Origin: Vulcanimicrobiota bacterium | GTDB taxonomy: Bacteria; Vulcanimicrobiota; Vulcanimicrobiia; Vulcanimicrobiales; Vulcanimicrobiaceae | Assembly (NCBI GenBank): GCA_963714015.1 | Contig: OY970223.1 | Location: 2,016,001-2,080,000, forward strand | Reading direction: 5' to 3' | Length of the DNA stretch: 64,000 nt | Shown here: piece after piece, positions 18,001 to 54,000 of the stretch | Layout of the letters: every line of letters begins with the position of its first letter | Position numbering within the stretch: the stretch's first letter is position 1 | Program-made: the position numbers

Positions 18001-21000
18001 TCCCCTGCCAGCGCTCGGCCGTTGCTGAATCAGACCGTATCGCGGCTTGGATCCGGCCGGGACGGCTCGGAGGCATGGTATAATCGGTAGTCCAGGAGGA
18101 CTAGTGCAAACGCTCTACTTGAATCCGCCTATTACCGGCGTCGTTGCGCTTCCCGCACAGCCGGTGCGATTCTGCCGGGGTTCGGCCTTCTACGCGTACC
18201 CGAAGTTTAAGATCTTGCGTTTTGTGGTCGCCGCCGCCGTGCGGCCGCTGAGGCATGCCGGACTGAGCCGGCGTTTACGGTCGCAGTGGTGCGCGGTGCG
18301 CGCGCATAGTTCATGGAGCCGCATTTAGGTCCCGGTCCGAGCGCTCCCGGCTTCGTGTTTGGAGGGAACGCGCAGGCAGACGTGCGTGCCTTGCGGCGTG
18401 ACTTCAATCGACATCGGCAGACGCGTGTTGCGCAAGATCGCCTCTCGCAGTTCGCCGTGCGTTGCACCGACGGTGCGGCCTTGCGTGTAGACGTGAACTG
18501 TAGGCCCGCCCACCGACTGCTCGACCAGAACCGCCAGCGCGATATGCCCGCGGACCATCTCCGCGCCGAGCAGTTCACCCAAAACGGTTTCGACGCTGAA
18601 CAAATCCGCGTCGCCGTTCTGCGTGAGCTTCGCCAGTTCTTCAATAACCGCGTGGCGCACGCTGGCAACAGCATAAGCGTCGGCGCAGTCGATAGACCAC
18701 TTCACCCTTGGAAAAATTCCCCGCACCTATATTATTAAACCGTCCTAAGCCCAAAGTTTACACGCGCGCTGCCCCCAGCCCGGACGAAATAAAAAGCGCT
18801 CAGTTCATGAAAACCGTGTCGTTCGTGCGCAGCATCAGTAAGATTGAATTTTTCGTAAAGTTGCTCGCAGAGCAGGCGAGCAGGCAGTCGTGCTGCTTCC
18901 TTTGCTGCATCCATCGAGCGCCGCGATGCGTTATAAGGAGCACGTATGCATGCGACCTTAGCGCACCCCTACACGACGCAACTCATCGCCCTCTGGCTTT
19001 CCTTCCTGCCCATTGCCGGCATCGGGGGCTTGATGGCAGGCGCCCTCGTCCGCGGTGATCGCGGTTTCCGCCGAAAAATCAGCATCCGCGTCCCCGTTCC
19101 GGCCTCCAAGTAACCACTTTTTGACGGCTTCCCGCGTTTGACCCGAATGAGGCGGGGTGATATACTACTTGCCTATGCCCCGCGCCCGATAAAGGCATTA
19201 TATAGAAGAAGGACGAGTTATCCACAAGATGTGGAGGTCTCGTTCTTTTTAGCGTGCGCGGAAACCGGGCGGCATAGATTGCGCAAACACCTGGGTGAGA
19301 GAGAAAGAAGTAATGGCGAAAACGACGGCTCCTAAGTCCCCGGCTAAGAGCACCGCGGGCACCAAGAGCAAGTCGAAACGCGCGGCCGGCCAAACGGCAG
19401 GAAACGGCGCCGCGTTTCAGCCGAGCACCTTCCCGATGCCGACAGGCGCGTTCACAATCGAGCAGCCGCCGGATCCGGGCCCAAAGCGCGAGCGCTACAC
19501 GTTCGCGAAGATTCCGCACGTTCTGGAAGTGCCTAATCTGATCGAACTCCAGAAGGCCAGCTTCGAGTGGTTCAAGACCGAAGGCTTGGCCGAGGCGTTT
19601 GCTTCCATTTCGCCCATCAAGGACTTCACGGGCAATTTGGTCCTGGAGTTCGGCGACCACAGCCTGGGCGAACCGAAATATTCCGTTGAAGAATGCCGCG
19701 AGCGCGACATGACGTACAGCGCGCCGCTGCGCGTTCGCGTGCGCTTGATTACGGCCGAATCCGGCGAAATCAAAGGCATTCCCGACCAAGAGATCTTCAT
19801 GGGCGACTTCCCGCTTCAAACAAGGAACGGAACGTTCATGATTAACGGTGCCGAGCGCGTCATCGTCAGTCAGCTCGTGCGCTCGCCCGGCGTGTACTAC
19901 AACCAGGACGTCGACACGAACAACCGTCCCGTTTACAACGCGACGATCATCCCAAATCGCGGCGCATGGATTGAATTCGAAACCGACAACGGCACGAAGA
20001 ACGACGAGACCGAAGGTACGATCGGCGTTCGCATCGACAAGAATCGCAAGATCTACGTTTCGACGTTCATCCGCGCGCTCTCGCGTCCCGACATGGGTTA
20101 CAGCTGGGAGACCGACGAGGCGATTCTTGCGCTGTTCGGCGAGTCTCCGCTCGTGCGCAACTCGATCGAGAAAGATCGCGATATCAAGACGCGTGAAGAC
20201 GCGCTCAAGGAAATCTACAAGAAGCTTCGTCCGGGCGAACCCGAAAACGCCGAGAACGCCGAGAAGCTGCTCGAGTCGCTGTTCTTCGACGACAAACGCT
20301 ACGATTTGGCGGGCGTCGGCCGGTACAAGCTGAACGCGAAGTTCCAATACCGCATCGAGAATCCCGACGTGGAAGCACGCGGCGAGCAGCCGACCGTGCT
20401 CATCGACGAGTACGGCGATGCGGGCCTGAAGATGCCTCCAATCGAGAAGCGCTGCTTGACGCGCGAAGACATGATCGCGGTGATACGCCGTCTGATCAAA
20501 GTCGCCACAGGCGTGATTCCCAAGGACGACATCGACCATCTGGGCAACCGCCGGATCCGTTCGGTCGGCGAGCTGCTGCAGAACCAGTTCCGCGTGGGTT
20601 TGCTACGTCTGGAGCGCGTCGTGCGCGAGCGCATGACGGTTCAGGACATCGAGACCGTTACGCCGCAGGCACTGATCAACATCCGTCCGGTAGTGGCGGC
20701 GATTAAGGAATTCTTCGGCTCCTCGCAGCTCTCGCAGTTCATGGATCAAACCAACTCGCTCGCCGAACTGACGCACAAGCGGCGTCTCTCTGCGCTCGGG
20801 CCGGGCGGTCTCTCGCGCGAACGCGCAGGCTTCGAAGTGCGCGACGTTCACCACTCGCACTATGGCCGCATCTGTCCGATCGAGACGCCGGAAGGTCCGA
20901 ACATCGGGCTCATCGGTTCGCTCGCGACCTATGCGCGCGTAAACAAGTTCGGCTTCATCGAAACGCCTTACCGGGTCGTGCGCGACGGTCACGTCACGGA

Positions 21001-51000: not shown

Positions 51001-54000
51001 ATTTGGACGACGAGGGCCGTCCGCGCAACGCGTTCGAGGCATCGCTGTACGAAGGCATGTCGGCCGACGATGCGGCGCTCTCGGAGATCATGGGCGCGAA
51101 CGGCGACGGCATGCAGAAACTGGTCAGCGCATACGACCGCACGCGCGAACCGGCGACCGTGCAATACGAAGGCGAGTACGAAGATCACCTCAACGTACAC
51201 GCCGCCCCTCGCAAAACCCAATACGATCGCAACGCCGGCTTAGCGAAGGGGATTAATCCGGAAGACCTGTAGCGCCAGCTACGGGCGAGGAAAGGAATGA
51301 GCCGCGGTTTGCACCGCGGCTCTTCCGTTTTAACGGCTCAAACCTCAGGGCCCCACTCGTGTCTGAGCTTCGAGCAGCGATGGTTCGCCGGGCGAGGACT
51401 CTACCAATAGGCGGGATTGATCTTTCCAAAGCCGCCGTCGTACTGGGTGGCATTGTCACCGTAGAATAGAATGCCGGCCGAGTCGATCGTCATCGTATCG
51501 GGATCTGCGTAGGTATACTTGTGAGGAAGAATGGGCCACTCGACGACTGTGCCGTTCGGCGACACGCGTCCGACGGATTGCGTTACCGAATCTCCGTAGT
51601 AGAGATTGCCGGACGCGTCCATCGCGCAACCGGCCGCAGTGGCGTAGTCTACACCGAGATTGGCAGGGTACGATGCGACGTACTGCCCATCCGTGTTGAA
51701 CGTTACAATGGAAGGCGCGGACAGCCCGGGCGGCATGATCGACCAAAAATTGCCGTCTTTTCCGACGCAGAAATCGCCCGCACCCTGGGGCAGCTGCGGA
51801 ATGGAGTATGCGGTAACCCCTCCAGCAGTCGTCACTTTTGCGACCTCGTAGCCGTCTGCGATCCACAAATTGCGATCGGGACCTACTACTATCGTTGTGG
51901 GCGGATATAAGTCGGGAAGATGGTAGAACGCCATGGTGCCGTCCTGCGTAACGCGGCCAACGTTTGAGTAGCCGGTTTCGCCCGTGTTGTTCGTGAACCA
52001 AACGGGTGCGTCGTCTCCGTGAAAAAATATACGGCGTCGCCGGTTCCAAACGTGTGGGACGTGTTCTCCGATCAGAACGGCGTTTGGGTCGCCGACTACA
52101 ACTACGGGGTTGTTCGAATCGCTCCGGACGGAACGGTAGCAGAATTCCCAACGTTCGCCGCTAATTCGGTTCCGGAAAGTGTGACCACAAACGCCGGCAA
52201 CCTGTATTTCGCCGACACGATTTCCGAGGGCTCCGAAAACTATGTCGGCGGCTTCGGATCGGTGCTCGAATCGAACTGGTAGAGCTCCGCCGAGGGCCAG
52301 TGTCTACCGGAGACGGAGCTGTGCTTCGATGCCCTGCCAAACCGTCCGCGTCGTAGCACGGCTTACGTCGTTCTCCTTAGCGAACCGTCGAAAGTCGCCG
52401 ACTGCGGCAATCACGTCCTCAACGATGTGCTCGCAGCGGTGTGCCCGACGGAAAAGATAGTCGTGCGCGACCCGGAGCACGTCCGCGCGCCGAATGTCTT
52501 TTCCCAAACCGTTTACGGCTAGATAATGCTCGCCGCCCGGGCCGCGCGAATAGGTCAAGTCGTAGGCCGGCGCGAGCGTCCATCGGCCGGAGTCGTCCAT
52601 CAAGAACGCGTGCTGCTTGGGGTGATCGTCCCGGTTGTGAGCGAACACGTTGAACGTCATGCGACGGACGATCTGCTCAATCGCGCGCGCGTCCGCGGTG
52701 ACGCGCTGCGTTAACCGCAGCAGGGTTTGATAATCGATTACACCGGGCTGCGCCCACGGAAGGTCGAGCATTCCCGCTGCGGAGAGCACGTGCATGCGCC
52801 GGTTGCCCGCGGCGCGATCGAACCTTTTGGTCGCAAAGTATCCCGGACCGGTGTGTGAGGAGATCAGCCGCGTGTCGCTCATTATTATTCCTGCGGCGCG
52901 GGCCATCGCGGCATACGCGCACTCGAGCGGGCCGACATCGGCCAGGTCCGCGGCGCTACTGCGGAACTTGACCAGCAACGCCTCGTAACCGTCGGGGATA
53001 GACTCGGCGCCGGCGATCATGCGTCCATCGGTGTTCATGGCAACGAGCACTTTGGGGCGCGCGCCTCCGGACGAGCCGCCCAACGCTTGGAGCTGCGACA
53101 ACACCGCCGTGTCACTACCATCGATCACCGCGCCGAGCTGACTCTCGAGCGCATCCAGGTCCAGTTGCTGGTCTCGCTGCATCGAGTCGAGTGGCGATTC
53201 CGGTTCATAGGTGAGCGCACCCATGCCGCGAGAACCGATAATCGCCAGAACGTCCAACGGTGAGAGGTTCGCCGGGATCTTGCCTTGTTCGGCGATGCGC
53301 CGATCGATAAGAAGCCGCCCCCAAGCATCCGGCAGCGAATCCCCAAAGACGCCGTGCAGCCCGTCGAACGCGCGAGGATCCTTCGCCCGAATCGGCCCTG
53401 GTCGAGGGGCATCCAGCAGCGGGTTGATCCGTAGACCACTCGCAATGAAATCCTGCGCATATTCAAAAACAGCAAGACCGCGATCCATTGCAAGGCGTCC
53501 CACTGGAACGCGACGGCCGGGCGCAAAGGTTAGGAACGCGCGTAGCGCTTGGCCGGCCGGAACGATCATCGGCGCGCGCGCGCGACGCGGGTGGGCGCCT
53601 TACGCGCGGTTACTTCTAATACTTGATCGACGGTGGGCGTTTCGGACTCCCGGAACAGAGTCGCAAGGGTTTCCACCGATCGTAAGGCAAGGGCGACCCG
53701 AACTAAGATATCGGTTCCTACCGGTTCGCCTGCCTCCATGCGCACGATCGTCTTACGGCCGACGCCGGCGGCGGCCGCCAGTTCCGCCTGGGTTATCCTG
53801 CGTCGAATACGCAGCGCCTTCGCCTGGTTGCCAACGCGGGCGAGAATCTCCGCGGGCGCAAGGAGTGGAAGGGCCATGTCTGATACATTGAGTCTCATTA
53901 CTGCGTGTAATGTATCATATATGATCCACTAAGTCCAACCGCGCTCTTCTTTATCGAGGGTGCATGCCTGCACGATGTGCTGCACATCGAACGAGCGTCT

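Follow-up and report, generated by a model that had tools for sequence, protein, structure and literature searches.

Introduction

The rpoB and rpoC genes, encoding the beta and beta′ subunits of RNA polymerase, belong to the rplKAJL-rpoBC operon in Escherichia coli and most bacteria, and in E. coli an attenuator lies between rplL and rpoB. The two genes serve as a textbook case of selection maintaining gene order, and the usual reason given is that subunits assembling together are needed in equal amounts. In some green-algal plastid genomes the rpoB and rpoC genes are reportedly non-adjacent. The order rplL-rpoB-rpoC is called "conserved in most bacterial genomes" in one passage of a published study (PMC2584045), and Brandis, Cao and Hughes (2019; PMC6735719) treat rpoBC as one unit and describe terminator-promoter overlap as holding neighbouring operons together.

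We analysed G000, a genome of 3.56 Mb in one contig from the Vulcanimicrobiaceae, a family of soil bacteria in the Eremiobacterota/Vulcanimicrobiota. The window is the 64-kb stretch of this genome that was studied, and coordinates refer to it unless stated otherwise.

Results

Position and integrity of rpoB and rpoC

Pfam domains RNA_pol_Rpb2_1, 2, 3, 45, 6 and 7, together with HSP boundaries, placed rpoB at 19313..23237 on the + strand; its ATG at 19313 is preceded by GAGAGAGAAAG and aligns with the MAK... start of relatives, and its stop is at 23237. rpoC (47441..51272, + strand) has a TTG start and carries RNA_pol_Rpb1_1 to 5. Domains of each protein occupy two forward frames (RpoB, 19253-22051 and 21972-23234; RpoC, 47432-49777 and 49611-51269), because each reading frame is broken once, by a single-base indel at ~22,002-22,013 in rpoB and a one-base insertion at ~49,655-49,665 in rpoC. 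Both are probably assembly errors, as the initial annotation had proposed for rpoB; in relatives the two genes are open over about 1,260-1,340 aa.

Each gene is single-copy in G000. The distance from rpoB stop to rpoC start is 24,194 nt, and the Pfam matches and stop and start positions (23237, 47441) bear out the earlier description of two genes on the same strand, 24.2 kb apart. The canonical strand and order (rpoB before rpoC) are kept; the canonical spacer of tens of nt to ~200 nt was not found in G000, nor was rplJ-rplL directly before rpoB. Upstream of rpoB the window carries MarC and GST genes; the sole Ribosomal_L12 match in the genome is at genome position 1,922,055, and rplL thus lies 113 kb upstream of rpoB, with rpsL another 193 kb downstream of rpoC.

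Content of the gap

The gap (23238..47239) holds genes in both orientations, as Pfam, ORF clustering and Pfam of cluster representatives revealed: on the + strand a Vgb_lyase-like propeller, an ion channel, an SDR, an NAD_binding_2 dehydrogenase and an alpha/beta hydrolase, and on the − strand Mrp antiporter subunits, an S9 peptidase, a second Vgb_lyase/NHL propeller and a molybdopterin oxidoreductase with 4Fe-4S and NrfD subunits. The closest relatives, G007 (22.1-kb gap) and G058 (16.9-kb gap), share collinear gap genes with G000, and GC content stays level at 0.59-0.62 over the whole gap; for both reasons the gap is not a misjoin.

We clustered gap ORFs from 35 family genomes and 4 adjacent outgroups; neither this nor Pfam of cluster representatives found a gap gene common to all three subclades (A, B and C). 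Clade C has a common part, located at 37140-40382 (both strands) in G000, comprising the NAD_binding_2 dehydrogenase (38100-39035, +), the alpha/beta hydrolase (39360-40382, +) and two unknown genes on the − strand; the dehydrogenase ortholog sits elsewhere in four clade A/B genomes (G024, G043, G053 and G051). Clade-B gaps are small and each different, containing a mazEF-like pair (G060), TnpB (G042) or a small secreted-protein ORF (G053).

Distribution of the split

Besides G000, the family survey covered 45 genomes that carry rpoB and rpoC together on a single clean contig. The genes lie on the same strand, 0.8-60 kb apart, in 34 of these and on opposite strands, 0.34-2.4 Mb apart, in another ten; they are adjacent in one (G051, 211 nt between them). 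The split is absent from the sister family f2 (a sample of one genome) and from f3 (six genomes). These results confirm the split as characteristic of almost the entire family (44/45), and correct the claim that no member has the genes adjacent. G051 is an unpublished and fragmented MAG (450 contigs, 3% contamination); a second adjacent form, with 198 nt between the genes, occurs in the clade-B portion of scaffold G010:C32, a chimera joined by NN.

Elsewhere in the phylum rpoB and rpoC are adjacent in 49 of 58 genomes, with 18-237 nt from the end of the RpoB match to the rpoC start. The adjacency reported for other families thus holds in this larger sample, and the pair of genomes listed as having the genes on different contigs belongs to a consistent split in family f17 (8/8 genomes of two genera), which is a second, independent split. 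Caution is therefore due where rpoB-rpoC adjacency serves to check assemblies or bins of Eremiobacterota.

In a tree built from 1,020 columns of RpoB and RpoC only, the two proteins in question, with many weak inner branches, G051 is nested rather than basal (AU p 0.0056, for a group chosen after tree inspection). Under strict parsimony this tree favours a single split, placed at the family root, with a reversal in G051, giving 3 changes in total including f17.

Transcription signals of the two genes

A consensus scan identified an rpoB promoter (TTGACC, 17 nt, TATACT, and a TG preceding the -10; 19138..19166, +; 10/12 matches) that is conserved before rpoB both within the family and in outgroups. 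The leader (19173..19312, +) begins with the start motif CTATGCCCC (19173-19181), followed by a long hairpin (~19206-19250) and then a U-run. The fold of 19174-19262 has −35.7 kcal/mol and z −4.39, equalled by none of 200 shuffles; a GC-rich hairpin followed by a U-run thus stands between promoter and start codon, and the leader looks like an attenuator. Of 21 rpoB leaders examined, 16 could be delimited, and a simple script found hairpin and T-run in 15 of these. An intrinsic terminator from the terminator scan (12-bp stem, 8 GC pairs, then TTTTTGCG; 23261..23296, +) begins 24 nt past the rpoB stop, and a simple script found a hairpin with T-rich tail after rpoB in 25/33 family genomes.

Before rpoC we read a promoter from the sequence (TTGCAC, 17 nt, TATACT; 47240..47268, +), which the consensus scan of G000 did not list because its -35 box matches at only 3/6 positions; relatives have TTGAC(C/G), 17 nt, TATAAT/TATACT at the same place. 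The rpoC leader (47275..47440, +) carries the start motif CTGTGCCC (47275-47282) and a conserved three-part hairpin, GCAGCGGTGGG..CTTACG..CGTGAG..CCCTGCGCAAGC (~47317-47370). Across 24 sequences of this hairpin 97% of cells are paired and 6 pairs show compensatory change, a result reached by 0/500 shuffles. This clade-C leader hairpin matched 101 stretches; among 80 loci considered, 75 have it 48-108 nt ahead of the rpoC start, and none of these carries an RpoB tail in its flank. In Rfam 15 a tRNA was the only match at gathering score in the 64-kb window, and nothing better than E 1 was found for 46800-47500, the rpoC leader region. By the script applied to the rpoB leaders, rpoC leaders have a hairpin and U-run in 5/8 clade-A, 10/12 clade-B and 6/27 clade-C genomes. 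A terminator-like hairpin with a 10-bp stem follows rpoC (51299..51322, +; terminator scan). Matching contigs in one RNA run came from relatives and covered the coding part only.

Judged by these sequence signals, rpoB and rpoC are separate predicted transcription units in the family, each with promoter, structured leader, gene and terminator in G000. The G000 signals do not fit one transcription unit, which would have neither an rpoB terminator nor a dedicated rpoC promoter, and the 12-bp terminator 24 nt after rpoB and the opposite-strand genes in between would make co-transcription impossible.

Likeness of the rpoB and rpoC promoter-leaders

The rpoC-specific promoter with start motif CT(A/G)TGCCCC occurs in all three subclades, and also within the 211-nt spacer of G051; the rpoB-rpoC spacers of f2 and f3 (-1 to 86 nt) have no such promoter. 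The same motif is present upstream of rpoB in G000, 16 family genomes, G101 (f2), and G115, G089 and G111 (f3). We trained a model, R1, on 17 rpoB upstream regions only and searched whole genomes with it. In all seven family genomes searched, three of them outside the training set, the two best matches were the regions upstream of rpoB and rpoC, with E-values for rpoC of 0.09, 4e-5, 5e-4, 7e-4, 6e-8, 6e-7 and 2e-4, and nothing else scored E <0.07; those of the weaker third matches that were inspected were ordinary promoters without the motif, for example upstream of rpsB. The three outgroups gave only the rpoB upstream match (3/3; next best E 0.2 or worse).

An nhmmer profile built from the R1 training regions matched rpoC upstream at E <=0.01 (genome-scaled) in 29 of 50 family sequences, and 46 of the 50 rpoC-upstream sequences were among the matches listed. 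G000's own rpoC promoter is a weak match (E about 5, rank 3-4 genome-wide), so the case for likeness comes from the relatives; its rpmH promoter, too, has TATACT-N6-CTGTGCCC. Within a genome, the leaders of rpoB and rpoC share TCGG-N2-GATA after the motif, as well as a hairpin/U-run layout in clades A and B. Past the first ~25 nt the leaders differ (leader-only profile E 0.07 or worse), and the likeness, spanning ~45-70 nt, is too short to tell a duplicate from sequences that converged on a common regulator or polymerase signal.

Discussion

We propose, with a probability of roughly 0.6, that, at the root of the family, the rpoB promoter-leader was copied to rpoC, and that repeated insertions followed. 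In the class as a whole, rpoB has a promoter of its own and no rplL ahead of it; ~6 nt past that promoter comes CT(A/G)TGCC(C/A)C, and then a leader containing a terminator-like hairpin together with a U-run. At the family root rpoC would have acquired a second copy of this promoter and leader start, placed in a ~200-nt spacer right behind the rpoB terminator hairpin, a state that G051 and the clade-B part of G010 may still represent. With both genes under the same cis-signals, co-transcription would no longer be needed, and the stretch from rpoB terminator to rpoC promoter could become a tolerated landing place. Genes would then have arrived independently, one set in the clade-A ancestor, another in the ancestor of clade C (the clade that includes G000) and, in individual clade-B genera, small genes of mobile or unusual kinds, and two lineages would have undergone inversions of about 0.4 Mb. 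The look-alike promoter-leaders probably keep rpoB and rpoC output matched. A more specific version is tentative, and we hold it at somewhat long odds: a duplicated promoter-attenuator module would have replaced co-transcription of beta and beta′, the shared CUAUGCCCC-plus element acting as an autoregulatory sensor (e.g., of free RNA polymerase) that sets both outputs, so that the pair was freed to drift apart repeatedly and the clade-C rpoC copy later gained its own conserved three-helix RNA.

The initial annotation had proposed one ancestral insertion that then grew. In a fuller form, a single insertion would have split the pair in the family ancestor and later been enlarged, replaced or rearranged, the short or absent gaps of clade B (G051, G010-v2, G053 and G060) being secondary deletions. 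The split in 44/45 genomes besides G000, the order and strand retained in 34 of them and the parsimony count of one split and one reversal in the family would all fit, and deletions sparing the rpoB terminator and rpoC promoter would be tolerated. We nevertheless give this about one chance in four: the three clades have no gap gene in common, clade A/B genomes carry the ortholog of the clade-C dehydrogenase at other loci, the small clade-B inserts look mobile and differ from one another, and G051 is nested in the tree. Moreover, in G051 and G010-v2, two separate clade-B lineages, the rpoB stop, the hairpin and the rpoC -35 box all lie within ~50 nt, the same tight layout that two independent deletions would have to recreate.

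It is less probable still, and in our judgement doubtful, that the promoter and start motif are a regulon signature, a signal for binding or initiation gained independently by several housekeeping promoters, which rpoC reached by convergence and not by copying. The rpmH promoter and the shortness of the alignable part, with leaders diverging after ~25 nt, speak for it, but R1 singled out only rpoB and rpoC upstream regions in the seven genomes, the next matches lacking the motif, and the TCGG-N2-GATA in both leaders of one genome and the hairpin and U-run layout common to clades A and B extend the likeness past the motif. Misassembly of an error-rich long-read contig, which the indels in both genes and the 89.6% completeness of G000 despite its single contig might suggest, is refuted for practical purposes by the collinear gap genes of G007 and G058, the 44 other split genomes from many assemblies, and the conserved terminator after rpoB and promoter before rpoC.

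The family offers dozens of genera with the pair uncoupled, one lineage that would preserve the intermediate state, and, in two look-alike promoter-leader modules, a candidate substitute for co-transcription. The question of why rpoBC is conserved becomes experimentally approachable.

Green-algal plastids resemble this family in that polymerase core genes are separated in a bacterial-type genome, but they are organelles with extensive rearrangement, and we know of no shared rpoB/rpoC promoter-leader in them. Compared with the canonical rplKAJL-rpoBC arrangement, G000 keeps both genes, their order and their common strand, and the terminator-like hairpin and U-run predicted before rpoB recall the E. 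coli rplL-rpoB attenuator at the sequence level; unlike it, rplL is 113 kb upstream of rpoB and rpoC 24 kb downstream, rpoB ends in a strong terminator, and rpoC has its own promoter and leader. A parallel in arrangement is operon concatenation, as outlined in PMC6735719: in G051 and G010-v2 the -35 box of rpoC borders directly on the terminator hairpin of rpoB, so that the units stand head to tail, whereas the junction in this family lies inside the rpoB-rpoC pair itself and appears to have been opened many times.

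rpoB, rpoC and the gap between them

Both RNA polymerase subunit genes lie on the forward strand of the window and are single-copy in the 3.56-Mb contig of the source genome (G000). The rpoB gene (19313-23237, +) carries six RpoB Pfam domains on overlapping frames (19253-22051 and 21972-23234), with its conserved ATG start at 19313 preceded by GAGAGAGAAAG and its stop at 23237; rpoC (47441-51272, +, TTG start) carries five RpoC Pfam domains on frames 47432-49777 and 49611-51269. The distance from the rpoB stop to the rpoC start is 24,194 nt, confirming the same-strand separation described in the initial annotation. 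Each gene contains a one-base indel within conserved sequence, the open frames of relatives spanning approximately 1,260-1,340 aa, and we read both frameshifts as assembly errors.

Pfam analysis of the gap revealed genes in mixed orientation (+ and -): Vgb_lyase-like propellers at both ends, Mrp subunits, an ion channel, an SDR protein, a dehydrogenase, a hydrolase, an S9 peptidase, and a molybdopterin oxidoreductase with Fe-S and NrfD subunits. GC content was flat over this region. The nearest relatives (G007 and G058) have gap genes in common with G000 in the same order, and the gap is therefore not a misjoin. Around rpoB and rpoC there are three propeller genes of the Vgb_lyase family (23518-24648, +; 45175-46482, -; 51404-52303, -); used as tblastn queries against the complete genome, they matched just 5 places. 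Recombination between the propellers at the gap ends was considered and dropped, because they showed no cross-match at E 1e-8 and are not close paralogs.

On the genome scale, rplL (1,922,055) is 113 kb upstream of rpoB and rpsL (2,260,141) is 193 kb downstream of rpoC, so that rplL-rpoB-rpoC-rpsL retains the canonical order, all on the + strand, but is stretched by gaps of 113, 24 and 193 kb. Just after rpoC we observed a HipA-like kinase with an HTH partner (52307-53928, -). Within the 54-64 kb region, GC drops from 0.61 to 0.54-0.57 from about 55 kb on, where a Vsr-like fragment, a DUF805 gene and HTH genes are found; this region may be an island.

Distance between rpoB and rpoC in the family and the phylum

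We surveyed 60 other genera of Vulcanimicrobiaceae, taking one genome per genus. Both genes were detected in 47 genomes, on different contigs in 16 (at least two of which, G016 and G056, are uninformative on distance because a gene touches a contig end; the unpublished genomes G019, G021, G028 and G041 enter only here) and on one contig in 31. Setting aside two NN-joined scaffolds (G010 and G017) left 29 clean cases: 27 with both genes on the same strand at stop-to-start distances of 0.8-60.5 kb, one with the genes on opposite strands 338 kb apart (G004), and one, the unpublished genome G051, with the genes adjacent at 211 nt. The initial annotation had listed no adjacent pair among 10 family genomes; G051 is one. 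A phylum sample (100 genomes asked for, at least 90% complete) added 24 family genomes, none with adjacent genes: 7 had them on the same strand 6.4-26.9 kb apart, 9, all of genus g62, on opposite strands 0.34-2.4 Mb apart, and 8 on different contigs.

Outside the family, the end of the RpoB match and the rpoC start were 18-237 nt apart in 49 of 58 genomes; one (G128) gave no RpoB match. The true spacer is 6 nt in the single genome of the sister family f2, and the genes are adjacent in 6/6 genomes of the next family outside, f3, with true spacers, read in three of these genomes, of -1 to 86 nt. In another family, f17, rpoB and rpoC are on different contigs in 6/6 genomes of g89 and 2/2 of g91, whereas all five genomes of g90 have them adjacent; the phylum therefore has a second, independent split. 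Two f17 genomes (G105 and G098; loci L071-L074) have both genes deep within large contigs, next to 6-7 kb of other DNA.

The NN joints in scaffolds G010:C32 and G017:C55 lie inside rpoB or rpoC, and can fake or hide adjacency in such bins. G017:C55 (L287) has its joint between the rpoB tail and rpoC codon 12, so its apparent adjacency is uninformative. G010:C32 has joints at two places and merges two organisms. Its first part holds an rpoB tail (81-84% identical to G024, G099 and G141, pointing to a clade-A-like organism), 18.5 kb of gap genes of the clade A type, and an rpoC leader plus the first 19 codons; its second part (G010-v2) holds an rpoB tail (79% identical to G060, pointing to a clade-B organism), 198 nt and rpoC. 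Integration into the rpoB 3' end was tested by looking for rpoB remnants ahead of rpoC; the sole match, G010, is this chimeric scaffold and was ruled out as a relic.

Promoters and leaders of rpoB and rpoC

In G000, the rpoB promoter (TTGACC-17-TATACT) is followed by CTATGCCCC and a leader with a long hairpin and U-run that folds far better than shuffles (z -4.39); a scan placed a 12-bp terminator 24 nt after the rpoB stop. The rpoC promoter (TTGCAC-17-TATACT), missed by the promoter scan because its -35 matches only 3/6, is followed by CTGTGCCC and a 166-nt leader, and the gene has its own terminator. The pattern '-10, 4-9 nt, CT[AG]TGCCC' occurred at three sites in the genome, before rpmH, rpoB and rpoC; shuffled sequence yields about as many, so that the meaning lies in the places and not in the number. 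The rpmH-rnpA-yidC promoter (genome positions 713,120-713,300), the only other site with the rpoB/rpoC start motif, reads TATACT-N6-CTGTGCCC with a hairpin and T-run directly after. Contigs from one metatranscriptome run (5% of sampled words) aligned solely to conserved coding sequence, from position 47433 onward, and none was at least 99% alike (14/200 at 95-99%); they therefore stem from relatives and have no bearing on a start site.

The promoter, motif and hairpin with T-run are kept upstream of rpoB in 16 family genomes and in G101, G115, G089 and G111, where rplL was not seen upstream of rpoB and the upstream neighbour gene varies. A motif-bearing promoter also precedes rpoC in all three family clades (A, B and C). 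A post-motif stretch, TCGG-N2-GATA, recurs in rpoC leaders of clades A and B, and a simple script detected a leader hairpin with T-run in 5/8 clade A, 10/12 clade B and 6/27 clade C sequences. In G051, the spacer of the adjacent genes runs from the stop through a GC-rich hairpin to TTGACG, 46 nt past the stop, and on through 17 nt, TACGAT, 6 nt, CTATGCCCC and a leader to rpoC. The stop/hairpin/-35 layout of G010-v2 is as in G051.

We then ran a sequence-only model (R1), built from 17 rpoB upstream regions alone, over whole genomes. Its top two matches were the regions upstream of rpoB and rpoC in 7/7 genomes (G043, G024, G004, G053, G030, G141 and G006); in the three outside the training set (G024, G030 and G141), the rpoC site outscored the rpoB site each time. 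Only the region upstream of rpoB was matched in the outgroups G101, G115 and G089 (3/3). Further matches (E 0.07-0.33) comprised three promoter-like sites without the motif, one of them upstream of rpsB, and two sites in apparent coding sequence. The likeness is weak in G000 (nhmmer E ~5, rank 3-4). A profile of the transcribed part of the rpoB leaders found no significant match among rpoC leaders (best E 0.07); the resemblance does not extend beyond the promoter and the first ~25 nt. These ~50 nt would fit both duplication and convergence on one signal, and by either route rpoB and rpoC have cis-signals in common.

A conserved element in clade C rpoC leaders

The majority of clade C rpoC leaders have no attenuator-like hairpin and carry a conserved GCAACGGTGGG..CTTACG-loop-CGTGAG..CCCTGCGTAAGC instead; G016 has both. 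The G000 copy forms a three-part hairpin in the rpoC 5' UTR (window 47317-47370). Across 24 sequences, 97% of cells pair, with compensatory changes in 6/14 pairs; this pairing was reached by 0/500 shuffles, and slid partners gave 29-49%. No Rfam family matched. A pattern search over 185,579 species genomes returned 101 stretches, of which 80 were examined as loci. In 75/80, rpoC starts 48-108 nt after the element, and 70 of these 75 have Eremiobacterota/Vulcanimicrobiota-type titles; the five loci without rpoC all belong to other phyla. At the level of the phylum, this bears out the taxonomic assignment in the initial annotation. An RpoB tail was found in the 300-nt flank of none of the 80 loci. 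The three-part hairpin is a candidate new cis-regulatory RNA.

Phylogeny and gap contents

A tree of 58 rows (1,020 columns, RpoB C-part and RpoC N-part; LG+G4, quick search) recovered a monophyletic family (SH-aLRT 91) with f2 and then f3 outside, and three groups within it: A, with 8 rows and a loose attachment of G013; B, with 12 rows; and C, with 27 rows, G000 among them, and a support of 96. The adjacent G051 is sister to G002 (support 97), whose genes are far inside different contigs. The AU test rejected a placement of G051 outside the remaining family rows (p 0.0056; the group was chosen with the tree already in view, and the chimeric G010 was left out).

Gap ORFs of 35 family genomes were clustered, with Pfam run on cluster representatives. 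The clade C core comprises a MASE1-GGDEF-EAL protein, two unknown genes, a TonB-dependent receptor, an NAD_binding_2 dehydrogenase, an alpha/beta hydrolase and an unknown gene adjoining rpoC. Entirely unlike it, the clade A core comprises an HD protein, a LuxR-type regulator, an M1 peptidase, a 2OG-Fe(II) oxygenase, isocitrate lyase and penicillin amidase. Clade B inserts are small and unrelated to one another: an IS605-type TnpB in G042 (L008:4089-5084), a mazEF-like (MazF/AbrB-type) toxin-antitoxin pair with small membrane ORFs in G060 (L004), and one small ORF in G053 (L002), accompanied in the final 250 nt ahead of the rpoC promoter by three tandem repeats of a ~25-nt unit (GGGGACATCTCTACTTGGCCGAGCC) immediately 5' of the -35. 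The G042 and G060 inserts look mobile. The few clusters common to several clades are widespread families (ABC-F, MFS, LuxR, SBP_bac_5) or mobile (TnpB). Orthologs of the clade C gap dehydrogenase (63-68% identity) are far from rpoB/rpoC in G024, G043 and G053, and on another contig in G051. In G032 (L006), the dehydrogenase gene begins 1-4 nt past the rpoB stop with no terminator between; rpoB is probably co-transcribed there with two inserted same-strand genes, rpoC keeping its own promoter.

Origin of the split

What the family has in common is not an insertion but a promoter dedicated to rpoC, with a specific likeness to the promoter and leader start of rpoB. Since this promoter is the family-wide feature, gain of the module was probably the first event: rpoC would have acquired it in a short spacer, a state retained by G051 and G010-v2. 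The stretch from the rpoB terminator to the rpoC promoter would thereby have turned into a tolerated landing place, filled once in the clade A ancestor, once in the clade C ancestor and repeatedly in clade B, with inversions in g62 and G004.

The initial annotation proposed one ancestral insertion at the root of the family. Parsimony taken alone favours a single split followed by reversal; against this stand gap contents that differ by clade, and G051, whose adjacency, spacer anatomy and nested position all come from one unpublished genome. We consider a single split with later reversal distinctly less probable, though a serious contender, than gain of the promoter module followed by separate insertions.

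The rplL-rpoB-rpoC arrangement is described as conserved in most bacteria (PMC2584045), and terminator-promoter overlaps are described between neighbouring operons (PMC6735719). A full-text literature search, with subscription journals outside its scope, returned no account of a free-living bacterium whose rpoB and rpoC lie apart, its matches concerning green-algal plastids. Splits of the pair are not unique; new in this family are the scale of the split, the intermediate state and the module, putatively duplicated. By analogy, the shared cis-signals may balance beta and beta' in place of co-transcription from one unit; the model for such balance is rpoBC of E. coli, which is subject to an attenuator and autogenous control.
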